Below are positions 29,627 to 63,098 of a stretch of DNA of 64,000 bases, one piece after another. Source of the DNA: a virus (Duplodnaviria; Caudoviricetes); IMG/VR virus record IMGVR_UViG_3300030060_002561, positions 1 through 64,000 of that record, one strand, 5' to 3'. Below the pieces are notes generated by a model. It was not told the origin of the DNA. It saw nothing but the letters and a program-made list of their open reading frames with translations, and made no database searches. Position 1 is the first letter of the stretch; each line of letters opens with the position of its first letter. A program made the translations under genes and the position numbers.

Positions 29627-29938
29627 TCAACTATAGTTAACGGTGACTGCAACAGTAGCACCTGACGCAGTTACATCTACTAGTATTCCATCTGATAGCA
29701 AAGCCCCATGAAAGTCATGCTCTAAGTTCGTTACTGCGTTTGGTAGGTATATTCTTGCTATCTCGTCAGCACTAACCTTCGTTGTGTCGTGACTGTCATA
29801 GATGTTAACTGTCGCAGTAGAACCACCATCAGAACTGATATGAATACTGTTTAATCTAACCTTCTGTGGAGACTTACCACCAACTACAACAACGTTGTCT
29901 GGACTAACTAACAGTTTGCTAGTTGCTACTGTGGTCAT
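29627..29938 (-). CDS. Small beta-rich virion protein (103 aa)
   Basis: Beta-strand pattern VRLNSIHI...TVNIYD...GILVDVT...VTVNYS; located downstream of the MCP. Confidence 0.55.
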   Translation of the reverse strand: MTTVATSKLLVSPDNVVVVGGKSPQKVRLNSIHISSDGGSTATVNIYDSHDTTKVSADEIARIYLPNAVTNLEHDFHGALLSDGILVDVTASGATVAVTVNYS

Positions 29939-30462
29939 CCTTCTGCCTCCAATAGCGCATCAATTAGAATCGACTTCTTACCATCTGCCTTGATTCCTCT
30001 CTCATCGAGTAGAGCCTTGAGTTGCTTGTTGGTGAGTTTCTCTAGATTTGGTGGCAGAGGGGCAAGGACTTCCTTTTCTTCCTTGACTGGCTTCTCCATT
30101 TGAGGATGAATCTCTTCCTTAGCCTCTGGTAGTTTCTCCGGCTTGGGCTTGGCCTTACCACCGAAGAACGACTTGCTCTTTCCGAATATTTTCTCAACCA
30201 TAGTCGGACCATCATCATCCTCGGTCAATTTATCATAGTGACCAACTAGATGGCTTCTCTTGTACTTTGACATAGTAGCCAAGTCCTTCTCATCGTTTGA
30301 GTCTAGGACTACTGTGTAGTTGTCATCTCTAAGAAGCGAACTAGCATACCTCAAGGGTATGTCTACGTCTTGTTTGTATCCTACAACGTATCTGTCAGTA
30401 CCGAAATTTATTCTCATTGCTCGACCATTCAATGGTCTGTTCGTTAGTCTAACCTTAGCCAT
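29935..30462 (-). CDS. Protein with C-terminal SAP/HeH DNA-binding domain
   Basis: LEKLTNKQLKALLDERGIKADGKKSILIDALLE. Start moved to ATG 30462 (MAKVRL), which follows an AGGTGA SD. Confidence 0.7.
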   Translation of the reverse strand: MAKVRLTNRPLNGRAMRINFGTDRYVVGYKQDVDIPLRYASSLLRDDNYTVVLDSNDEKDLATMSKYKRSHLVGHYDKLTEDDDGPTMVEKIFGKSKSFFGGKAKPKPEKLPEAKEEIHPQMEKPVKEEKEVLAPLPPNLEKLTNKQLKALLDERGIKADGKKSILIDALLEAEG

Positions 30463-33604: not shown

Positions 33605-36199
33605 TTAATCTGATTTTTTAGTTGGAAATGACAAATCTGCGTATTTATCTTCTGTAATATCCCAGAGTTTTGTATCATCCTTCATATCCAACATCTCTTG
33701 TTTCTTACCTGTCCAGACAATCCAAGTCTTCTTCTCATCTAGAGGTACAACTCTAACGTGGAATCTAGTATCGAACTTGTCACCTTCTAGTTTGTATTCA
33801 TGGTATCCTTCTTTCTGTACACCTAGTATTAACTTACCAGAATCTATCTCCTTCTTATGTTGACCTAACCGTTTTCCTACAATAGCAGGGAACTTCCCAG
33901 ACTTACCAAACAAGTCGTATATGTCCTCACTGTTTTCTATATCAATCTCCCAGAAGTTTCTCTTGTCATTAACATCCATGATGAAATCCAAGTTGCCATC
34001 TTCTCTCAAGATGATGCTAAACGAACCTGTTTCTCTTTTTTTTAATTCCTCGACATCCTTCTCTAGTACATCTGGTATGGCAGTAAACTTGTTGGGATGA
34101 TGATATCTCAGACTATCCTGCTTCTTCATCCAAGTCATCAGATTCTCATCGCTACTCTGGAAAACCTCTTCGTATGTCTCTGGGAACTCCTTCTTTACGA
34201 AATCAACTATCTTAGGAAAGGCAGTTGGTTTGTTCTTGTATATGTCTATTATCTCATTCTTGATTGCGATTCTTAATTCTGACCTTCTGGTTTTCAACAT
34301 CCTCTCTAGTTCAGACTTCCACATGTCTAGATTGTACAATGCGTTCTTCTGCATAAGTGAATCACCTTCAAATCCATATATGGTGAAACCATCAAAGTCG
34401 CTCTTCAAGATTATCTCAGCAGTACCATGTATGTCATCAGTTATCATATACGACTTCTTTTCATTGGTCTTGTCCTTTATTCCAGTTGTGATATTGAACG
34501 GGCTGAGTTGTCGAACCCCAATCATAGCATCTGAAGTCAATGATTTCTTGGTCTTGGTAGATAACTTCTCCAATGTGGATAGTTTGTCTGACTGAGTTAC
34601 TTCTGGTATCTCTATCACTTTAGCAGAGTAGAGATTGAATCCCTTCTTATTCTTCTTGACTTCATCCACCTTGACTCTAACTATGTCTCCGACACTTACC
34701 TTTACCTTGGTGTTGAGTGCCTTACCAACTGAAACATATGCCTTGTCATCCATCTCCGTAGTTGTATAAGTCCTAGCCTCTTCCGCAGTAATCGGGCCTA
34801 CTCCCATAGTGTAAGTATGCATTCCATTGTTAGTGGATTTCTTATCTAGTACAATAACATCCAAGTCAACGAACTTTTTCCACTTAATCCACTTCGGATT
34901 CTTCTTCTTTGTAATTGGATATGTTGACTCCATATCCTTGATTACCACTCCCTCCGATGCAGGTAGTTCCATGATATCCTTCGCATACTCTCCTACTTCC
35001 TTGATTGAGTCTGCGACTCTGGTATCTTTCTTCGATGGGAATGCGAGAGAATCAGATGAGTGTTGACTGAATTGGTATAGAAGGATGTTATGTCTCTCTC
35101 TCAATGGTTCATCATGAATGTCCTTGCCCTCATGTTGCATTATGTCAAACACATGCGCTCTTAGTTCTCCACCTTTCTTGTTCTTGAAAACATGAGCAAT
35201 GGTAGAAGCCCGATGTAGTGGTTCATCATCCTCAAACAGAACCAACTCTCCATCTAGTATACAATCCCCGAACTGCTTCTTCCTTAGTTGCTCGACTTGC
35301 TTCTCACATTTGTCAGTAATATCCTTCTTGTTGTATGAGTATACCTTGATGTTATCCTTCTTCTTGTGAAGTTGTATTCTCATGCCGTCATACTTCTCTT
35401 GAACCAACCACTCTCCAGTAAATCCCTTCAACTCCTTCAAGTCATCTAACTCAAATATCCTGTACATCGGTTTGTTTGGTATGATGAAATCTATTTCCGA
35501 TTTCTCATCTACACTCTTCTCGTCTTCGCTCTTCTCTAGGTCTAACTCAACTAGATTGTCCCATTGTTCATCTTCGTATACGCCATTGAACATCTTGTCG
35601 AGTCGCTTCAATGCTCCCTTGAACTTTGACTTGATTCTGCTTTGGTCTTCATCTTCTGCCCCATAGTGTTCTATGATGTAGAGAGGTATGTCATCCATCT
35701 CTAAATCCAATCCCATTGCACCTTGAGTGACATTATCTCCCTCCATGTCGTGTTCTTCCCATATTTTATCGGGAAGTGCATTGGAATGGGAACGTAGTGC
35801 ATAGTGAATAAATGCAATGAAGAGTCTGTCACTCTCCAATAGGGTGTTTATCACATCCCCTTCAAACTTCTTGGAGAACGGGTCGCTAACTTTCTTGGAC
35901 TGGAACCTCATGTCCTTGACGGCTTCGTATACCTTCTTGGCTTCTAGAGTGGTTGGGTCTTTAGCAGACTTGTCGAATAGAACCTTCTCTTCTAGATACT
36001 TCTTCAATTCCTCAGACAGTTTGTTTAGTGAGTCGAAGTCATCTCTGATTTTATCTATGACTTCGTGCCATTCCTTCTCATACTCTGCTTTGTCCTCTCT
36101 GGCTGAAAGATAGGCGTATCGTGTCTTCTCAAAGAAATCAAGAATTGCTCTAGTCAAATCCTCAGTTTCTTTCTCAAACATCAATCCTGTTTCAACCAC
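33605..36199 (-). CDS. lig: ATP-dependent DNA ligase with long N- and C-terminal extensions
   Basis: Motif I QEKYDGMR, III ILDGELV, IIIa VFDIM, IV EGVVIK, V WIKWK, followed by an OB domain. Confidence 0.92.
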   Translation of the reverse strand: MVETGLMFEKETEDLTRAILDFFEKTRYAYLSAREDKAEYEKEWHEVIDKIRDDFDSLNKLSEELKKYLEEKVLFDKSAKDPTTLEAKKVYEAVKDMRFQSKKVSDPFSKKFEGDVINTLLESDRLFIAFIHYALRSHSNALPDKIWEEHDMEGDNVTQGAMGLDLEMDDIPLYIIEHYGAEDEDQSRIKSKFKGALKRLDKMFNGVYEDEQWDNLVELDLEKSEDEKSVDEKSEIDFIIPNKPMYRIFELDDLKELKGFTGEWLVQEKYDGMRIQLHKKKDNIKVYSYNKKDITDKCEKQVEQLRKKQFGDCILDGELVLFEDDEPLHRASTIAHVFKNKKGGELRAHVFDIMQHEGKDIHDEPLRERHNILLYQFSQHSSDSLAFPSKKDTRVADSIKEVGEYAKDIMELPASEGVVIKDMESTYPITKKKNPKWIKWKKFVDLDVIVLDKKSTNNGMHTYTMGVGPITAEEARTYTTTEMDDKAYVSVGKALNTKVKVSVGDIVRVKVDEVKKNKKGFNLYSAKVIEIPEVTQSDKLSTLEKLSTKTKKSLTSDAMIGVRQLSPFNITTGIKDKTNEKKSYMITDDIHGTAEIILKSDFDGFTIYGFEGDSLMQKNALYNLDMWKSELERMLKTRRSELRIAIKNEIIDIYKNKPTAFPKIVDFVKKEFPETYEEVFQSSDENLMTWMKKQDSLRYHHPNKFTAIPDVLEKDVEELKKRETGSFSIILREDGNLDFIMDVNDKRNFWEIDIENSEDIYDLFGKSGKFPAIVGKRLGQHKKEIDSGKLILGVQKEGYHEYKLEGDKFDTRFHVRVVPLDEKKTWIVWTGKKQEMLDMKDDTKLWDITEDKYADLSFPTKKSD

Positions 36200-45707: not shown

Positions 45708-48700
45708 TCACCTGAAATTCGCTTTGAGATAATAGACACTATCAGAAGGAACTCCATATTTCTTAGCAAGTGACTCCATAGAATCAAATTCATTGACAAT
45801 GTTCTCAATCTCTACTGCTGAGATGTCTACATTGTAAGACTTCACTAGCGTATCTTGTGCCTTGGCTATATGTCCGAAGTCATCTAGATTGGATGTTCCA
45901 TAGTAAATTGGCTTACCTAGCATCTTTCTTATCCCATCATGTGCGGCAAGAACCCTCATCTCTTCAATGCTCTTCGTAATGTTGAATCTCTCTCTGATTT
46001 CATTGAAGACCTGTAGTGCCTCTCTAAGTTCCGAGTCATCACTACCTCTTCCCTTTTCTCTCAAGTATCTACCCTTGTCACTACCAGTGCCACTCTTGGA
46101 ACCCTTGCCAGAACCTCCGGCATTTCTCCTAACATGGTTAACAAATGAGATGAAGGGTGCGGCGGCTTTCCTTGGATTCTCCTTGTGTCTATCCTTCCAT
46201 ACTCTTGCAGGGGTATTCCAGAGAAGTATGTCCTCATAGCCATCGACATTGTTTCTCTTTGCCATATGGAAGAAGTACGAACCTAACTCTTCTTTCATTC
46301 TCTCCCCTAATGTCGATTTAGGACTTTGACCGAATACTCTAATCATTACATCCTTTTGTAAGTCTACTATTATACTCTTGAAGCCTTTCGCGTTTTCTGC
46401 GAAACTTGGTTCGGATAGGGTCTTCAAGACATCAGCGAAATCAATGATGTCTTCTCTATCAACGAACGTTCCATCTTCCTTCTCCTTCGCCATGACTGCG
46501 AACAGTCCATCATCTACCATTCCCTTCGTCAATGCACCAAACACACCCCCACTTGTTTGCTCACTAATGAATGAACTGTCATCATCGAAAGGCATGTACA
46601 TTCCCTCAATGGGTATGACATAATAATCAATGACTGCATCTAGCAAGTCATCGAATTCTCTTCTCACGGTTTGTATGTCGTTGAGATAGGATTCGTCATT
46701 GCTTCTGGCTGGGAAGATGGAGTCTATTCCCATTGGGTCTGTAGTAATTGCTTGTTGACTGGTCTTCGTTCTAACGCTACTTGATGGCCCAGACCTTCTA
46801 TCTCCCTTCTCCACGAACGATGCCATGAGTTCCAAGAATTGGCTAATGTTCTTCTTGTTAGTTTCCAGTCTTCTAGGAGATACTGCTTCTATGATTCTGA
46901 ACAGAGCCTTGCCCTTTGATTCCCTGCTCTTTCCTAGTATTATTTCTTCTAGGGTAGCAGATAGTGGAAGGTAGTATATCTGTCTAGTATCTCCTTGTGT
47001 AGCGACCTTGGAAAGAGACTCTATCCAATCGGTAATCCTTTCATCGTAATCCAAGTCCAAACCGAAGATGTTGGTTTCCAATCCTATCTTGAGTTTGTTT
47101 AGTTCGCGCTCTAAGATGGCGGTGTTCTTGAACGCGCTACCATCCTTGGAGAATGCATATGCGAATAATGGGTCAACATCTTCTGCCAATGCGTCAAAGT
47201 CAAACTTTTCTTTGGCTTCTATCAACTCATCTATTTCTCTAACTGTTTCCCCTATACTCTCAAGGTATCTTGCTTTCTCAGACTGTCTTGCCAACCTGTA
47301 CTGTGCGCCCGCGTCTTCGATAGGTCTTTTGCCGTCAGTACCTATCTCGGTTCTTGCTGATGCAGAAGTAGTCTCATCTTCTCCTTGTCCTCTCTGAGTC
47401 ACAGTAGTTCTTGTTTCATCTCTCTCTACCGCACCTATTTCCAGAAGTCTCTCTCGTAGAGTCTCCATGTCCAACTCGGTCTTTGACCCTGTATCTACTA
47501 GATTCATCTCTCGTAGGAATGTATCGAAGAGAGTCCTCACCTTATCAGATGAATCTTTAGCGGCGGCTTGCATAGGTGATGCCTTGAATGGCAAGACGTA
47601 ATTCATACCATCATCATATGCAGATTCAAATTTAGCATCAAACTCAAGGTACTCATCTATCAGTTCACTCAGAGGCTCATTCAGATTCTCCCCTTCGCCA
47701 ATGAGGATATCCTTGTGCTTGAGGAAAGCCTTTCTCAAATCATCATACTTGGTTTGAAGATTCTTGAAGTCCTTGGTGGCTACTCCTTCCCAATACTTGT
47801 AAATCTCATCTCTGCTCTCAAGGTCTGCTAGGTTCAAGTCACCAATGAGATATTCACCAGATATACTTGCTCTGGTAATTTTGATATCTGCTTCCTCATC
47901 CTCTTCTATGAATTGTCTAATCTGATTTGTCAGGGGTTCCAACTGAGATGAAGTCTGGTCTTCCATAACTCGTAGATGTTGCCTTGCCTGTGTCTTGTCC
48001 TCTGGTCTGTATACAAAACCACTAGCATCCCTCTCACCTTGCATTACCTGCTTTCTTTCTGAAACGCTCATTGGTTTGCTAGAAACCAAATTGATGAACC
48101 TACCAAGAACTCTTGTGACTGCTTGTACATCTCCCTCAAATGAACTTGTCAAATCTCCTGCCTTCATTCCCTTTTCGCCAGATAACTGAGTAACTGCATA
48201 TCTCAGTTGTTCTTCAAAGAGGCTCTTACCAATATTCGTTCCACGTAAGGTAGTTTTCAAAAGTGGCCTAATCGCATCTTTGAAGTCATCGAACAAAAGT
48301 CCCTTTGATTGTATATCTCTCACAGTTTCTCCAATATGTGGCTGAACGGTGTAATCCCCATCAACAGAGAGAATCAGTTTGCTCTCATCCTTCTTCGTGG
48401 AAGTAAAGCCATTGCTATCATCTATAAGATATCTGTAAAGTAGGTCTTTTTCCCTCTTATATTCCCTTTTCTTATTCTCCATGAGAACATCTAGTTCACC
48501 GTCTATCTGTTCACCAATCTGGGCTTGGAATACTGAATCTAGATTGTCACCAGTCAACTCTTGTCCTTTTGGCAAATCTTGCTTGATGTTCCTAGGATTA
48601 TACTTGCTACCGCCTTCCAGATACTCCTTCCCTATCTGAGCGAGATAAAAATCCTCAATTTCATCCATTGAGGACTTCAACCACATAGCAAACTCTGATT

Positions 48701-50968: not shown

Positions 50969-51325
50969 TCATTCTATGTACTCACCTTTGACTTTCTCAT
51001 ATACTCTACGAACCTCTTCCTCATTCTCATACTCACCGTTAGGATACATAGTTACGGGGTTAATAGCGTAATCTGCTACTTCTTCGTCTGACATCGTTCT
51101 CCACGTATCTTCTATCTCCTTGGCATCCTTAACAGGGTCCAATTTTTCCATATACTCTATGAATTCATAGAATTCCTTTGCCTCTTCTGCTCTACTACCG
51201 TCTTCAACAGGACTTTCATACCTTCTAGCAAACACATACAAGTCGTATATGAAAGCCTTGTATATCTCTCTGAGCATTTCATTTAGTGAAATTTCCTCCG
51301 CTTTCAGAATATCTTTCCAACTCAT
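50969..51325 (-). CDS. Acidic hypothetical protein with MSWKDILK tag
   Basis: 118 aa; coupled to the upstream gene. Confidence 0.7.
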   Translation of the reverse strand: MSWKDILKAEEISLNEMLREIYKAFIYDLYVFARRYESPVEDGSRAEEAKEFYEFIEYMEKLDPVKDAKEIEDTWRTMSDEEVADYAINPVTMYPNGEYENEEEVRRVYEKVKGEYIE

Positions 51326-51978
51326 TGTAACTTATCCTCCATCTGCTTCCTCACATCCAACCATACATCTGGATGGTTCTGTGCTAGAACCTCCTTGATT
51401 ACTTGCATCTGGTGAACGATAACTGTGTCTTGCCTCTTGTGAACCAACTTGCCCTTGAACTCCATGAGGTACTTGAGGCTCTCACGAATCTCCTTTGCCA
51501 ACTTGGTTAGAGAGTCAATGTACTTCGGGTCAAGTGCATCCTGTGCGAACAACTCATCCACCTTGGCCTCAAGCCTGTTGATGTTGTTGCTTAGAGTATC
51601 TATCTCATTGACTTCCTTCTGTGCAATTAGGTTCGCCGCAGATTGTTGTACCAATGGTTGTAGGTGATGTGTCATGTGCCTGAACACTTGGTCGTCTGTG
51701 CAACCTAGGAAATCAGCAACCTCAGACGGTGATATTTCGCCAGAGTGAATTCTCGTTTCCAACTCAGAGCGACTCTCGGAAGTGCATAGTACACACTTTG
51801 GATTCGCAGACTTGGTGTATCCTGTCATGTGGTTCCTCTGGTGTTTGGCAGATGTCCCACTAGGCCAGTTCTCCAATCTATCTAACTCATCAGCAGTAAT
51901 TACCATGTCATCTAGGTCTGCCTCAAGTTGGTCACGATTCTCATGTTGGCAGAGTTGACATCGCTTTCTGGTAATCAT
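51322..51978 (-). CDS. Tandem Zn/HTH DNA-binding protein with coiled coil; candidate terminase small subunit
   Basis: Two CxxC...HxxxH units (CQLC..HQRNH; CVLC..HMTHH) enclosing HTH-like helices, then an oligomerisation coil. TerS role inferred from architecture and position upstream of terL. Confidence 0.55.
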   Translation of the reverse strand: MITRKRCQLCQHENRDQLEADLDDMVITADELDRLENWPSGTSAKHQRNHMTGYTKSANPKCVLCTSESRSELETRIHSGEISPSEVADFLGCTDDQVFRHMTHHLQPLVQQSAANLIAQKEVNEIDTLSNNINRLEAKVDELFAQDALDPKYIDSLTKLAKEIRESLKYLMEFKGKLVHKRQDTVIVHQMQVIKEVLAQNHPDVWLDVRKQMEDKLQ

Positions 51979-55058: not shown

Positions 55059-55203
55059 TGGTAGGCCCGAAACTTACCAATTAGATTAACCTTGGCCCAC
55101 CATTTTCTATCTACCTAAGAAAAAAATTTGAACTGCAAAGCCATATGGTTGTAGGATACTTTGTTAGGATAATCATACCTGATGGGAGGGGAGAGAAGAT
55201 TAC

Positions 55204-55539
55204 CTATCTTCCCTCCGCCTCCTTTGCGAGTCTCTCTGCTTCCCTGTCCAGTAATACTTGGTGCTTCTCTGAAATGGGCCAGTGAGGATACTGTGATGCG
55301 AGCCTTTGAGCAAACCAGAGGTTAACCTTGGACTCTTGGACCTTGCCTCTTTTGTCCTCAAAGCGGGTTCTCCAAGAAGCATACCTGTTCCAGTACGCCC
55401 TTTGTCCTTGTTTCCTACTGATGGTGTCTCCTGCCTTACCTTCAACTACTTCCTTGTGTCTGTTAGACCAAGTGTTAGTGTTTCTGCCTTTGATGGTAGG
55501 TTTATCTTCTGCGTAGTCAAACTCAGGATTGTAAGTCAT
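55204..55539 (-). CDS. Hypothetical basic protein (111 aa), cassette 1
   Basis: ATG 55539 in a TGATG overlap with the upstream gene. Confidence 0.6.
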   Translation of the reverse strand: MTYNPEFDYAEDKPTIKGRNTNTWSNRHKEVVEGKAGDTISRKQGQRAYWNRYASWRTRFEDKRGKVQESKVNLWFAQRLASQYPHWPISEKHQVLLDREAERLAKEAEGR

Positions 55540-55793
55540 CAGGGTTGACCTCCCTTTGAGAACTGCCAACCGTTTCCTATCCTCTCTTCTAAGTCTTCCA
55601 TCTTAGTTTCCATCCAGATAAGACTCTCAATCCATCCACAGTGAATGTAGTAATCGTTAGGCAACGGGTTTCGTGTTGTACCTGTCTTTATCCTATGCTC
55701 GATTATACTATCCATCATCATTCGGATGTCACTCTTAGCAATCTCTATTTCATCACACATTATTTCTAGATTAGTTCTCCTAGTTTTGTTCAT
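55539..55793 (-). CDS. Hypothetical protein (84 aa), cassette 1
   Basis: Start moved to ATG 55793 (MNKTRR), about 25 nt after a CCTTAT TATA-like box. Confidence 0.55.
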   Translation of the reverse strand: MNKTRRTNLEIMCDEIEIAKSDIRMMMDSIIEHRIKTGTTRNPLPNDYYIHCGWIESLIWMETKMEDLEERIGNGWQFSKGGQP

Positions 55794-55887
55794 GTCTGTA
55801 TCTGGCAATGCGAGATGATAAGGTGAGTTGACAAAGTTACTACCATATGGTATTGTACACTTTGCTCTGGACAAGCACCTGAAGTTT

Positions 55888-55962
55888 GTCGGGGGAAGGA
55901 GTTTAATTGCTGAATTTGCGAGTTAATTCAATGTTCAAGGACAGCAATCTCCAACCCCCGAC
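55888..55962. other. Long imperfect stem-loop
   Basis: GTCGGGGG/CCCCCGAC, GGAG/CTCC and ATTGCTG/CAGCAAT nested pairings. Confidence 0.6.
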
Positions 55963-56210
55963 TAGGAGTTTATCTATAGGACATCCGGAAGGTAGAGGTT
56001 CACCTAGAATGTGTTAAGCAGGAATTTCGGAATCACGCTTTTCGCGTACCTTAGTCTTACCATCGAATACTTCTCTCAACCCAACTAATTGCCTAGGGTA
56101 AGTTGGTTGTTAGCGAGGGCTATGGAGTTTCGCGTTGCTACCCATTTGTCATAACATGCGTATTCATCATGGGTGTGGAAACTTATCCTTCCTTCAGTCC
56201 TATAGGAGTG

Positions 56211-56402
56211 TTATTTGTGGAACTCTTCAACAGAATCGTTGAAACTGCGAAGAGCCGCGTATATTTCTTGTAGGGCCGTGTTCAAGTCATCACTTCTAAC
56301 CTTGAGTGACTTCAACACTACTACATGATTAGAGCCAGACTTAGAATGTCCGACATCTATCTCATATTGATACTGTTTCAAATCTACTTGTCCAGTATTC
56401 AT
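56211..56402 (-). CDS. Hypothetical protein (63 aa), cassette 2
   Basis: ATGA overlap with the upstream gene; GGTGG SD. Confidence 0.55.
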   Translation of the reverse strand: MNTGQVDLKQYQYEIDVGHSKSGSNHVVVLKSLKVRSDDLNTALQEIYAALRSFNDSVEEFHK

Positions 56403-56665
56403 CTATCCACCCCATCCAGTTGAAAGAGATGTTTACCGTCTGCATCTATTGTGAAGACACCAAGTAGCCTGTTACCTGTTCGTGCGTTAGAACCACCAGT
56501 TGACCATACTATGAACCAGTCTTTGTTTGATTCTGCGTCAAAGTATGCTCTTACCTTGATTCCAGACTCCCAACCGTTGCTAGTCATTGTTAAGCCGCTT
56601 GATTTAGTACCAAGTCTTGACGCTTCGCCTCTGTTACCTTGTATTGTGCCTCTGTATTGTGCCAT
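56399..56665 (-). CDS. Hypothetical beta-rich protein (88 aa), cassette 2
   Basis: ATG about 25 nt after a CCTTAA box downstream of palindrome 3. Confidence 0.65.
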   Translation of the reverse strand: MAQYRGTIQGNRGEASRLGTKSSGLTMTSNGWESGIKVRAYFDAESNKDWFIVWSTGGSNARTGNRLLGVFTIDADGKHLFQLDGVDR

Positions 56666-56833
56666 GGTTCCCTATGGCCTATCGGGGTTAAGGTAATTAG
56701 CGAGCAAAGTGCTACTACCATATGGTTTGTAATTACTTTGCTATCGGAAAATTCCTCAAGTTGGCCCACAGTGGGGAGGTCGGTGTTCTGACCCCCCCTC
56801 TGGGGTTATGTGGTTCCTCGGTACTCGGTTCGC

Positions 56834-57433
56834 CTACTTAGAGGACTTCTTGGCCTTCTTCTTAGGTTTCTCCGGCCTATCCGCGAGCGGGATTTGGGTG
56901 AAGGCGACTGTCCAAGACCAATCCTCGCTCTCTGGCTCGTAGGTGCCATCCCAACAGCGACCATATGCATCCCCGGTCCTAGGTTCTGCATTGTGACCCC
57001 TAAACTGAGCATTCAGAGCGTTTCTGATTGCCGTTTCATCTCTCTGGGAGAATTGTGAGCCACTAATGAACCATCCACCATCGGAACGGCCCGAAGCAGT
57101 CTCAACAATCTTCACGGAGACATTATTCTCCCAAGACCGGGTTCTCTCTGCCTTGATATCGGTAATAATTGCCTCTCGGCTCACTATCATCTCGGCAGTT
57201 AGACCAACTGGTATCTTCACGGTGACGAAGGGTGAGTCTGGAAGGTCTTCAAAGACCTCCTTGATTGATGTACTTAGCCTACCTCGCCTTGTTGACATCT
57301 TGTCTCCCTTGTCCAACCACTTGTGTACGACCTTCAACTCTGCTTTCTGCTCTTTGTTAAGGTCTGGGTGGTCTTTCTCCCAATCTTCCACTTTCTTTCT
57401 TGTTTCTTTCCATTCTTCATCGCTTATTGCCAT
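56834..57433 (-). CDS. Hypothetical protein (199 aa), cassette 3; paralogue of 57984-58454
   Basis: Follows a CCCTATATACCC box; shares KG..R..R..T...E...D..DSP and WDG with the plus-strand gene. Confidence 0.75.
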   Translation of the reverse strand: MAISDEEWKETRKKVEDWEKDHPDLNKEQKAELKVVHKWLDKGDKMSTRRGRLSTSIKEVFEDLPDSPFVTVKIPVGLTAEMIVSREAIITDIKAERTRSWENNVSVKIVETASGRSDGGWFISGSQFSQRDETAIRNALNAQFRGHNAEPRTGDAYGRCWDGTYEPESEDWSWTVAFTQIPLADRPEKPKKKAKKSSK

Positions 57434-57451
57434 GTATCACCTAATACCGAC

Positions 57452-57507
57452 ATGGGTATATAGGGTAATGAACAAAAGTAACAACCATATGGTTTGTACA
57501 TACTTTG
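57452..57507 (-). promoter_or_regulatory. Representative cassette promoter: palindrome plus archaeal TATA-like box
   Basis: Minus strand ACCATATGGTTGTTACTTTTG-N-CCCTATATACCC-~20 nt-ATG. The same geometry occurs before 55793, 56665 and 57832, and a similar box follows palindrome 5 on the plus strand. Confidence 0.65.
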
Positions 57508-57530
57508 TTCGGTAAACTACCTCGATTTGG

Positions 57531-57561
57531 TGAGGGGGGGATGGAGGTATTCCCCCCCTCA
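57531..57561. terminator. GC-rich hairpin at cassette 3' end
   Basis: TGAGGGGGGGAT...ATTCCCCCCCTCA. Similar hairpins lie near 55184-55222, 56773-56797 and 58490-58520. Confidence 0.55.
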
Positions 57562-57571
57562 GTATGCGAGG

Positions 57572-57832
57572 CTAGGTTTCCACTATCCTCTCTATGATTG
57601 TCCATACTCCGGTGGTAATTTCGTGCTGGATTCTCTGGGCCTCAAAATAGTCCTTGCTGTTTTTACCAGTCCCGGACAATTTATGATATGCTCTGAATAA
57701 TCTGTTGTTCGATATAGCATTCATTTCTCTGAGATGTTTCTTTGCATCTTCATGGTTCAGAAAGACCTCTATTCCATAATGCGTTCTCTTTTCGGGCTTT
57801 GTTTTGCATACTTCGTATATCACTAATGACAT
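57572..57832 (-). CDS. Hypothetical protein (86 aa), cassette 4
   Basis: Follows a CCCTATGTACCC box; ends before the hairpin. Confidence 0.6.
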   Translation of the reverse strand: MSLVIYEVCKTKPEKRTHYGIEVFLNHEDAKKHLREMNAISNNRLFRAYHKLSGTGKNSKDYFEAQRIQHEITTGVWTIIERIVET

Positions 57833-57983
57833 AGTATCCCCTGACCATCTGGGTACATAGGGTACAGTTCAAAGTGTGCAACCATATGGTAGTCACTTTG
57901 CTCGACTCGCCTTATGTATCCGAAGGGCCAAAAGTAATTGTTCAGAGGGTAAAGAACCCCACAACAAAGAAAAGGTGAATAAA

Positions 57984-58454
57984 ATGACGGCAATGGATAA
58001 TTGGACAGAATTTAGTAAAACGATGAATGACTTTGCAAACAAAGGCACGATGGATGAAGTCGATGCTGAGTATGTGAAGAGACAGATAGCGAAGGGAACG
58101 GACAACCCAGAAAGGCAAAGCCGAATCGCTACTGCTGTTAGGGAAACCGTGAGAGATTACGATGATAGCCCTGTCAACAGTAGAGGTTTCTCTCTGCCCG
58201 CTGTGGCACAGGCTGTTGTAGACCTAGCAATCGCGGCTGTTGTAGCAATGGGTCAAGCATTCGACTCGGCTCCATCAGTACGCGCACTATGGATTCCACA
58301 CGGCAAGTGCAAGTTCGACCACTTTGAGAATGGTGAGCATTGGGCCACCTATCACAGTGCGAAGATACAGGAGGCCGCCGAGGAAATGTACAAGGCGGGC
58401 GAATGGGATGGCTCTGAGAAGAGTCTTCTAGCCACAATCGGAGGTTCTCTCTGA
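57984..58454 (+). CDS. Hypothetical protein (156 aa), cassette 5; paralogue of 56834-57433
   Basis: AGGTGA SD before ATG 57984; divergent from cassette 4. Confidence 0.75.
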   Translation: MTAMDNWTEFSKTMNDFANKGTMDEVDAEYVKRQIAKGTDNPERQSRIATAVRETVRDYDDSPVNSRGFSLPAVAQAVVDLAIAAVVAMGQAFDSAPSVRALWIPHGKCKFDHFENGEHWATYHSAKIQEAAEEMYKAGEWDGSEKSLLATIGGSL

Positions 58455-58779
58455 TTGTGGAACGTTCGGACCCTTCTGAACACTCCTTCGGGGGGGCAGG
58501 TGTTAATTCACCTGCTCTCCCACCCCCAGATAGTCAGGTCGAGGCGACAAAGTGCCTAACCATATGGTTGTATGGCAGATTTCTAGGTAGAATCGGATTA
58601 CCGGGATATGGGCGGGAGTATATATATCGAGGGGGCCAAGAGGGAATTGTCCGATGACCTAGGGATTCCGACATCGAATGCGCTCACCTAACCAGAGCAA
58701 TATATCAAAGTCGAAACCTACCTGTTAGATTTTTCAACTAACAAAAAAGAATAGGTTCACACAAGGTCCATCTAGTTCT

Positions 58780-59110
<331 letters not shown>

Positions 59111-59199
59111 ATAAATTCGATACATTACATTCGATACACCAAACCTTGACGGTTGATTGAAAGGTGACATGAGGCATCGTTGAACAGTTTAGCGACTTA

Positions 59200-60330
59200 G
59201 TAAACCTCGTCTTTGTCATATGGGTAATACCATGCTTGTCCCATGAATGAAGTAGTGGGACATAGATGAGTAAATCACAAGGGTCGAAACGGGGAGTTCT
59301 ACGGAACATCTTCGGATGAAACAAGTAAAGATACAGGGGTTGACTCCACTCTTTCCTATGACCACTTAGCCGTGGCTCTGAACGGGTGTAGTAACTGACT
59401 TGGTAGGGATGGCTTCTCTACCAACTGTGCGCTATAAAGGAGAAATCCAACAGTAGTCGTCAGCGTCATAAAACAAATCGCTCAACAAGCCCGTTAGTTG
59501 AGAAGCCCATTTTCCCTGCGTAGCAACGGCATAGCACGTTCTTGTTCTCTCCCCATAACTATTCACACCTTTTCTTGGGGCTTTACCCAAGACCGGGGGG
59601 ATATCCACATTGCCGCGATATCCTCCCACCATCTCAAAATAATCGAAATGATTATCATACTCCTACCCCCGATTAGTAGGACGTAGTTTGCTAAGTAATA
59701 CGGAGAAAAACACATTTTCTACTGTCGTGTTCTTTGTTTAGCGGGTTCTCTCCCCAAAGAGTTCCTCTCCGTCCTACACCTACTTTTACTACGGGGGCTA
59801 GTGATTATATTCAGTCCTATACTGAATGTCAGACATACAAGGGCGATGTTGAATTGGGCCACCTTTAACATGATTGCACTACTTAGTAGACTTTCGTGGG
59901 TGTTCGTACCTGTTGTTTTACTCGCAAGAGCGAGTTTGTATGCAATAACAAACAACGAAACTTTCACACTCAAGACTCACTTATGTGGGTTTAACGCTTG
60001 GACGCAACTCTCTGTTCAGAGAATGAGATAGAGAACATATTGGGAAATGTGGTTGCTTCTGAGTTAGAGCGAGGTTTAGCAGTAATGCAGAGAATATCTT
60101 CTGAGATAAGTTATGAACGAAGGATACCAGAGTCGGAAGAGAAAGGGTATTAGAAATGTAATTTTATCAAAACATAATTTCTAAGTAAAATTTGAGTAAA
60201 ATTTTGTTTAGTAGGGTGGTATCATGCCACTCAACTTCATGTTACCGAGACTAACTAACGGTACGCTCTCAGGCTATCAGCGTAGAGATTCCTACGCACT
60301 AGTCTTAGGCATATGCTTGATGACTCTGCC
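59200..60330 (+). ncRNA. Candidate structured non-coding RNA region (family unidentified)
   Basis: No convincing ORF; many hairpins, including adjacent UNCG tetraloops GTTC-TACG-GAAC and ATC-TTCG-GAT (59296-59317). Confidence 0.35.
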
Positions 60331-62911: not shown

Positions 62912-63098
62912 GAACCATATGGTCGTAGGGCCAGATGAATTTGATGAAGTAATAACATATGATTGTGAAGTCTGTGGAGATTTAACAGACACGTTTCACA
63001 GTTATGAAGGATATTGTAGCATAGGTTGCTACGAAGAAGGACTAGCAGAGGAAAGAAGACTGCTAGAGAAATATGAAACTTTAATGGAAGAGGAATGA
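62898..63098 (+). CDS. Small treble-clef-like Zn-finger protein
   Basis: CEVCG...YCSIGC. Confidence 0.6.
   Translation: MERIENHMVVGPDEFDEVITYDCEVCGDLTDTFHSYEGYCSIGCYEEGLAEERRLLEKYETLMEEE

Follow-up and report, generated by a model that had tools for sequence, protein, structure and literature searches.

What does a palindrome do that recurs six times along a row of small orphan genes in a virus and nowhere else in the record of that virus? The row lies at 55136–58568 of the stretch of DNA analysed here (the window: bases 1–64000 of the linear, 82,725-bp IMG/VR record IMGVR_UViG_3300030060_002561, CheckV completeness 88%), and the initial annotation of this locus had offered two answers as alternatives, namely (a) an immediate-early or host-takeover regulon under one dimeric regulator or (b) symmetric recombination sites that let gene cassettes be gained, lost or inverted as in integrons or shufflons. 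Comparison with relatives indicates that the two options are not alternatives and are best read together as one regulatory cassette, resembling the repeated promoter and stem-loop elements of T4-type phages known as PeSLs. The palindromes are probably joints between self-contained units of promoter, gene and hairpin, each joint being a shared operator–promoter element that doubles as the point of recombination.

The palindrome reads CAAAGT-N-ACCATATGGT-N-ACTTTG, and all six copies were found where they had been annotated, with none elsewhere in the 82,725-bp record. The word CCATATGG at their centre starts at 55141, 55843, 56718, 57485, 57882 and 58560, and so the annotated spacings of 875, 767, 397 and 678 bp are right while the first is 702 and not 701 bp. 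In the window CCATATGG occurs eight times against 0.94 expected, a count reached by none of 100 shuffles, and the half-site CAAAGT-N4-9-CCATATGG occurs nine times against 0.00 expected, always within 55141–58567. The whole record holds no half-site outside the array, and a reversed control pattern gave 0. Two lone cores that lack arms, at 46262–46269 inside a large structural open reading frame (ORF) and at 62915–62922 at the junction of two plus-strand ORFs of the replication arm, are probably chance or vestigial copies. Nested pairing in the spacer between core and arm, as for a small hairpin, was no better than in shuffles, and a second motif, TCTWAGGTAGAW, beyond the ends of the array was not above chance. 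The six sites are as follows.

55136–55163, site 1, an array end: core at 55141–55148 and inward arm ACTTTG at 55158–55163; outward, CAAAG abuts the core and no spaced arm is present.
55832–55864, site 2: both arms present.
56705–56740, site 3: both arms present.
57473–57507, site 4: the left arm is CAAAAGT, with one A more.
57870–57900, site 5: both arms present, with a TATA-like box on either side (divergent promoters).
58548–58568, site 6, an array end: core and inward arm, with no outward (right) arm.

The claim that the two outermost sites are incomplete on their outward side thus holds for site 6, and approximately for site 1 in view of its abutting CAAAG. The layout ascribed to the intervals was recovered in every one of them: from the palindrome it proceeds to a TATA-like box 7–11 nt past the arm, to one or two ORFs and then to a hairpin built on runs of G and C, with four units directed leftward and one rightward as annotated. 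In the list that follows the minimum free energy (MFE) of a hairpin is given with its z-score against mononucleotide shuffles.

55204–55793, minus strand, unit 1: c1a at 55539–55793 (84 aa) and c1b at 55204–55539 (111 aa), whose ends share base 55539.
55824–55818, minus strand: box of unit 1, ACCTTAT.
55184–55216, minus strand: G/C hairpin of unit 1, overlapping the end of the c1b gene.
56211–56665, minus strand, genes of unit 2: c2a at 56399–56665 (88 aa) and c2b at 56211–56402 (63 aa).
56694–56688, minus strand: box of unit 2, ACCTTAA.
55888–55962, minus strand: closing hairpin of unit 2, GTCGGGGG ... CCCCCGAC, MFE −36.5 kcal/mol, z −4.6.
56771–57433, minus strand, unit 3: c3 at 56834–57433 (199 aa) and hairpin at 56771–56805, MFE −31.1 kcal/mol, z −1.9.
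57466–57454, minus strand: box of unit 3, ACCCTATATACCC.
57531–57832, minus strand, unit 4: c4 at 57572–57832 (86 aa) and hairpin at 57531–57561, MFE −32.0 kcal/mol, z −6.6.
57863–57851, minus strand: box of unit 4, ACCCTATGTACCC.
57910–58527, plus strand, unit 5: c5 at 57984–58454 (156 aa, with a leader) and hairpin at 58490–58527, MFE −40.7 kcal/mol, z −3.9.
57910–57918, plus strand: box of unit 5, CCTTATGTA.

Closing G/C-run hairpins are found in four of the five units (units 2–5), and the hairpin of unit 1 is weak in the stretch folded (−6.2 kcal/mol, z −2.1).

Related viruses carry the same signal. Searching with the full palindrome (20 specified bases) found 118 IMG/VR stretches belonging to 89 contigs of 22–185 kb, and the DNA taken from around them holds 173 full sites and 447 cores at a typical spacing of 300–1000 bp. 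The spacers from core to arm are 4–9 nt long (mean 6.4 ± 1.2 nt) and not conserved in sequence, and the flanks are free to vary. By comparison, what is conserved across at least 89 related contigs is a motif, the palindrome with its adjoining box, and not a repeated piece of DNA. In all five complete relatives (98–103 kb) half-sites are confined to one region of 0.6–4.1 kb, with the reversed control at 0, and no half-site was present in ten partial records of this group in which the array region is missing. Among the contigs above 86 kb, of which 29 out of 30 were searchable, all 29 encode a homologue of the major capsid protein (47–99% identity) and 24 a homologue of TFIIB/TFB (22–37% identity, one close relative excepted), and in each of these 24 the array stands 7.4–15.6 kb 5' of the TFB gene. 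A scan of a prokaryote genome collection with the full palindrome returned 34 stretches, none with an archaeal title and 20 of them from one Streptococcus locus, a number which by our own estimate is of the order expected by chance. Given the confinement to one array in the relatives and the lack of archaeal genome matches, the signal belongs to the viruses.

That the units move is seen from ORF-family maps, in which the same families recur in differing order and orientation from contig to contig, separated by palindromes. The initial annotation had named an unchanging order and orientation among relatives as the outcome that would speak against recombination, and relatives differ in both. Where the exchanges occur can be read from breakpoints, taken here as the internal ends of alignments between contigs (at least 200 nt, 75–99% identity). 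Within 25 nt of a core lie 88 of 354 such ends, whereas randomly placed positions gave 24.3 ± 5.0 and no more than 39 in any of 200 trials. Of the 128 ends found no more than 60 nt from a core, 79 fall at 0 to +20 past the core centre and 9 on the near side, only 1 of these 9 at −20 to 0, which indicates that likeness extends across the near arm with its variable spacer and ends at, or just past, the 10-bp core.

Two pairs of contigs give the details. In IMGVR_UViG_3300030060_005658 and IMGVR_UViG_3300030708_001584, which are 82–94% identical, half-sites swap partners at the core: the former has [A|B],[E|X'],[x|C] and the latter [A|x-rc],[X'-rc|C],[.|B],[E|D], a difference which on the aligned DNA is an inversion together with the transfer of one unit. 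In this pair a half core that carries a mutation (CCATATGA on one contig, TCATATGG on the other) has stayed beside its own arm. Between 3300030333_002512 and 3300030110_002054 one unit has been relocated, and all the junctions are at cores. Such pairs appear to provide unusually clean evidence of exchange inside a 10-bp palindrome. Of option (b), then, the variable order and orientation in relatives and the breakpoints at the core hold good, while the proposed likeness to integrons and shufflons does not, no recombinase having been found and each unit having its own promoter. The annotation had already noted that no recombinase is visible in the window, and neither a tyrosine nor a serine recombinase was found in the record or in four complete relatives: PF00589 (tyrosine recombinase) was absent from all five records searched, four of them complete, with the control positive in 14 of 14 genomes, and PF00239 (serine recombinase) was absent from the same number of records (0/5, again with four complete).

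Evidence for a promoter in each unit comes from what follows the arm. Family-wide, the words ACCCTA, CCCTAT and ACCTTA are enriched 12–13 times in the 30 nt after the arm, and words of the CCCC-GAA-GGGG hairpin (AACCCCGAAGGG-type) are likewise enriched there. There are 145 distinct promoter-like sides with an arm and an ACC..A(T/A)A box, and in 101 of these an ORF of 40 aa or more begins no further than 120 nt away. The ATG is 21–26 nt downstream of the box in 54 of the 101, with a minor group at 60–77 nt. The archaeal TATA box is centred near −26 and leaderless mRNAs are frequent in archaea, and so the common distance fits a leaderless start from an archaeal TATA box. Units 1–4 of the window fit this leaderless class, and in unit 5 the gene is preceded by a leader of 42 nt that carries a Shine-Dalgarno-like AAAGGTGA. 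On sides that face a gene start (n=225) the box is present in 57% and the G/C hairpin in 1.8%, compared with 38% and 17.7% on sides that face a gene end (n=237), figures drawn from a noisy gene set into which conserved antisense ORFs are counted. Of option (a), the single regulon, it is the promoter part that sequence statistics support well, by the position of the box and by the ATG that follows it; a regulator and an immediate-early or host-takeover timing would be further, putative parts. Contigs assembled from RNA libraries (four metatranscriptome runs of two studies) lie on unit interiors at 55224–55741 (unit 1) and 57947–58525 (unit 5); being assembled contigs, they do not allow starts, ends, strands or levels to be read. 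No such contig covers sites 1, 2, 3, 5 or 6, an absence that carries no weight.

Taken together, a unit would run outward from its joint as the half core ATGGT, a spacer of 4–9 nt, the arm ACTTTG and a TATA-type box 7–11 nt further on, and would continue through one or two small orphan genes and a G/C-run hairpin to an arm and half core in mirror image. The joints are envisaged to be bound by one symmetric (dimeric) protein, probably of viral origin, that co-regulates the promoters of the units, and it is the symmetry and strict conservation of the core that argue for a dimeric protein. Short-homology recombination at the invariant core may in turn move, swap and invert units. Recombination is placed at the core because the core is the only sequence common to all units, and since it is palindromic an inversion is as possible as a deletion or a swap.

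Several observations weigh against joints of this kind. No classical regulator of the ribbon-helix-helix (RHH), helix-turn-helix (HTH) or AbrB type was found with Pfam on 19 large, 10 array-region, 16 right-arm and 40 small ORFs, the hunt giving only the TFB homologue, a SAP domain and a weak PC4 match. A 218-aa protein at 51322–51978 has weak matches only (HTH_20, E 0.066; phrog_151, a transposase, E 4.6e-4; HNH, E 3.7e-3). The variable spacing between core and arm is awkward for a rigid dimer, and ordinary homologous recombination would normally call for more shared sequence than the 10 bp of the core. In the nearest relative (94% identity) all six sites recur in unchanged order, the sole difference being a 165-bp indel inside unit 1, and therefore shuffling is not fast. 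An 863-nt RNA-library contig spans site 4 together with its hairpin, which reflects either leaky termination or DNA in the library. Sites at array ends, finally, retain only the inward arm in 27 cases, only the outward arm in 1 and both arms in 17, compared with 187 internal sites having both arms and 39 having one. From this asymmetry it seems that an arm and its half core belong to the neighbouring unit and not to the site as a whole.

The array stands at the switch point between a leftward structural arm and a rightward replication arm. On the minus strand, from 1 to about 54,640, runs a head-tail structural module (Pfam on 19 large ORFs) with a tail tube protein, an SU10-like major capsid protein, a prohead protease, a portal and a terminase. 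The plus-strand replication arm begins at 60,224 and includes a UvrD-type helicase, ribonucleotide reductase, the TFIIB/TFB homologue, ThiF and JAB domains, a second ATP-dependent ligase, RFC and a PD-(D/E)XK nuclease. Three genes of the two arms matter below; two of them lie beyond the window and are given in coordinates of the full record (G000).

33605–36199, minus strand, structural module: 864-aa protein with an ATP-dependent ligase domain (Pfam).
Record 69274–70248, replication arm: viral TFIIB/TFB homologue with a Zn ribbon and one cyclin repeat.
Record 74883–75305, replication arm, directly after the replicative ligase: 140-aa single-domain LAGLIDADG-fold protein.

The available part of the magrovirus description gives magroviruses A and B genomes of about 100 kb with an archaeal-type replication module and two ligases, one of them within the structural module (Philosof et al. 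2017, PMC5434244). The same gene content is found here, that is a head-tail module, an archaeal-type replication module and two ATP-dependent ligases, with a polymerase not seen in the 88%-complete record. The record is accordingly magrovirus-like, from a tailed virus of archaea with a genome of roughly 100 kb. An earlier guess that this is a virus of Poseidoniales agrees with this content. The viral TFB could redirect host transcription onto viral promoters; several relatives' TFB matches contain an in-frame stop. A SAP-domain protein lies inside the structural module at 29935–30462, and the ThiF-like and JAB-like genes of the replication arm (ubiquitin-like modification) adjoin one another at 70235–71780 of the record. 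Between the array and the helicase gene about 1.6 kb (58570–60220) are free of any convincing ORF. This interval has an A+T-rich segment with A+T palindromes at 58920–59034 and a (CT)16 run at 58971–59002, and the GC skew changes sign here; it is likely to be a replication origin or arm-switch region.

The rival that survives best retains exchange at the core and assigns it to a dedicated enzyme. A symmetric virus-encoded nuclease would cut the centre of the palindrome and the viral ligases would rejoin the self-complementary ends in any order and orientation, the promoter being merely a part of each unit. Exchange points inside the core, the mutated half core that stays with its arm, the sole retention of inward arms at array ends and the presence of two ATP-dependent ligases in the record would all be expected of such an enzyme, and the 140-aa protein is the candidate for it. 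Single-domain LAGLIDADG enzymes act as dimers on near-palindromes of about 20 bp and cut the central 4 bp. The AlphaFold2 model of the 140-aa protein (pLDDT 82) has as its top Foldseek match the homing endonuclease I-TnaI (5gkk; E 1e-7, TM-score 0.76/0.74) and matches 107 PDB entries at E ≤ 0.001, while phmmer against PDB reached a best E of 0.0011. Pfam models found nothing in it, and genome searches with PF14528 and PF00961 found none in the record and only sub-threshold matches in two of five records. Relatives number 128 at E ≤ 0.001; among the 120 listed the longest contigs reach 188 kb, and those with names carry only 'hypothetical protein' or gene-call coordinates. The family is present in all 29 large array-bearing records, in 25 by a single-sequence search and in the other four of four by profile. 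This co-occurrence is uninformative on specificity because all large records carry both the protein and the array, and the other records with the major capsid protein are fragments, 31–70% complete, that lack the array region.

Against the dedicated enzyme stands, to begin with, that this protein is no more than a candidate partner of the palindrome. When the name motif is placed by letter matching (YLAGMLYAKAQ) the two acidic positions are Y and K in this virus, and by eye the position of the last acid is non-acidic in 23 aligned members, with a D or E four residues later in 15 aligned relatives (again judged by eye). Non-acidic residues at these positions make cleavage doubtful and leave binding possible. 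The family is also only 22–38% identical (91% in one close relative) while the core is invariant, and a virus that cut its own genome at six or more sites would pay a high price. On balance the cut-and-rejoin scheme is unlikely. A related and similarly doubtful proposal is that a domesticated homodimeric LAGLIDADG-fold protein recognises the ACCATATGGT joints, either nicking or cutting the central ATAT for shuffling that needs no integrase, or acting as a cleavage-dead repressor or activator common to all units. Were it true, a homing-endonuclease fold would have been recruited to run both a regulon and a cassette array in an archaeal virus.

Much less probable is that each unit is a small mobile element, bounded by the terminal inverted repeats ATGGT-N-ACTTTG ... 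CAAAGT-N-ACCAT, and that such elements entered a palindromic target in tandem, moved by a transposase acting in trans. Inverted ends of arm and half core do flank each unit, the outward arm is lacking at array ends, and units vary in order and orientation. However, apart from the weak phrog_151 and HNH matches of the 218-aa protein, no transposase, integrase or resolvase was found, the units were not seen outside the single array in five complete genomes, and the 34 stretches of the genome scan include no full site in an archaeal genome. Nor is there any sign of recent spread, for unit proteins diverge in step with their genomes, c5 being 41–44% identical where the major capsid protein is about 70%. 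Similarly improbable, lastly, is that the palindromes bind a replication-origin or partition protein (iteron-like or like origin-recognition boxes) with the promoters beside them by accident: the array does adjoin the gene-poor 1.6-kb stretch with its A+T-rich segment, A+T palindromes, (CT)16 run and change of skew, but the sites extend across 3.4 kb and are interrupted by genes, their distance to the TATA-like boxes and start codons is fixed, they coincide with the boundaries of units in relatives, and they are wholly absent from the A+T-rich stretch itself.

None of the eight unit proteins falls into a Pfam, NCBIfam or PADLOC family at the thresholds applied, and one of the eight, c2a, matches a PHROG (phrog_5927, function unknown). 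Across the relatives, 1 of 44 representatives of unit families has a Pfam family above cut-off. The protein c2b is a member of family F1, found in 34 contigs; its AlphaFold2 model (pLDDT 80) is a β-hairpin and a helix with no PDB match at E ≤ 0.001 in Foldseek, its profile returned designed coiled coils only, and the Atlas gave nothing. Unit family F3 (17 contigs; for example L196:2069–2371) matches the Pfam family Kyano_Gp96 at E 3e-12, and as that family is named after T4-like cyanophages, this would be a small gene common to marine bacterial and archaeal viruses. A grouping of c3 and c5 as one family, suggested by single-linkage clustering, was rejected as the two have no pairwise similarity; for that reason 'F0' is a mixed cluster and map comparisons that use F0 alone are weak. 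The indel in unit 1 consists of 165 extra bases between c1a and c1b in the 94% relative (window 55534–55542 against L258:7386–7551). The alignment pieces overlap there by 9 bases and the longer form is found on one RNA-library contig, and the event looks like an indel by short repeat, away from any palindrome.

Unit 2 also holds a stretch of about 235 nt on the minus strand without an ORF (55974–56208), bracketed by a 28-nt inverted repeat (55974–56001 and 56178–56205). RNA-library contigs of all four runs, from both studies, lie on it, at 56015–56208, 55997–56208, 56015–56220 and 55982–56348, and one contig has a loose end of 24 T ahead of 55982. Indels in relatives are not multiples of three here (2+1+5 nt; 1 nt). 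The fold of the stretch is no better than that of shuffles (z −1.1), Rfam gave no match, and the 94% relative is the only one in which the stretch was found. Candidate explanations are a stable structured RNA and a processed 3' untranslated region.

How far this arrangement is new can be judged from the known systems. The magrovirus literature searched, including PMC5434244, PMC11706807 and PMC10160649, has in the parts available nothing on such a motif or promoter signal, and a search of the literature for CCATATGG together with archaea gave no such motif among the best matches as judged by their titles. A signal that marks promoters would give a first handle on the transcription programme of magroviruses, and it flags small orphan genes that are co-regulated and freely exchanged, and so are likely to be host-interaction genes. 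The palindrome also offers a precise site for a candidate DNA-binding factor. Magroviruses rank with the most abundant viruses of surface seawater, and both they and their hosts are uncultivated.

The resemblance to integrons lies in a row of small units with imperfect inverted-repeat sites between them and with content and order that vary among relatives. In contrast to integrons no integrase gene was found here (PF00589 in none of the five records), each unit has its own promoter and hairpin where integrons serve promoterless cassettes from one common promoter, and the joint is truly palindromic around a core that does not vary. Shufflons and invertase switches differ in depending on a serine or tyrosine recombinase, neither of which was found (PF00239 and PF00589, 0/5 records each).

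The closest likeness is to the PeSLs. In the available part of the report on T4-type phages these are intergenic repeats of a host-type promoter with a polyG/polyC stem-loop, recombination between which shuffles genes, and PeSL mini-circles as well as promoter and terminator activity were demonstrated (Arbiol et al. 2010, PMC2839356). Both systems have a repeated motif that joins a host-type promoter to a polyG/polyC stem-loop, and in both it is placed just upstream of small genes of unknown function in a hyperplastic region, here one array per genome. Gene shuffling by recombination between motifs is probably shared too, being suggested here by comparative breakpoints at cores. The differences are that the PeSL promoter is of the sigma-70 type, whereas the promoter here is an archaeal TATA-like box before mostly leaderless genes, that the element shared among units is here a separate bipartite palindrome upstream of the promoter and not the promoter or stem-loop itself, and that the shared identity is restricted to a 10-bp core and 6-bp arms with all copies in one array. 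Function has been demonstrated for PeSLs and is here predicted from sequence. With a promoter that is not of the sigma-70 type, a separate palindrome and evidence at the level of sequence, the array is best taken as an analogue of the PeSLs and not as a member. A study by Comeau et al. from 2014 (PMC4122927) reportedly also deals with the PeSLs of T4-type phages.

Nearer in host is the haloarchaeal myovirus HGTV-1, in which a TATA-like box and an inverted repeat precede most left-arm ORFs (Sencilo et al. 2013, as related in the available part of PMC3950731), and whose authors, according to the same part of that source, likened the motif to PeSLs and proposed roles for it in regulation and shuffling. 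Compared by these descriptions only, the two are archaeal tailed viruses that repeat a TATA-like box and an inverted repeat ahead of many ORFs; they differ in host and virus lineage, and in that the HGTV-1 motif extends along a whole arm while the one described here is held in one short array. A promoter cassette that serves as a recombination joint, shown in T4-type phages and suggested for one haloarchaeal virus, would thereby extend to a large group of marine archaeal viruses.

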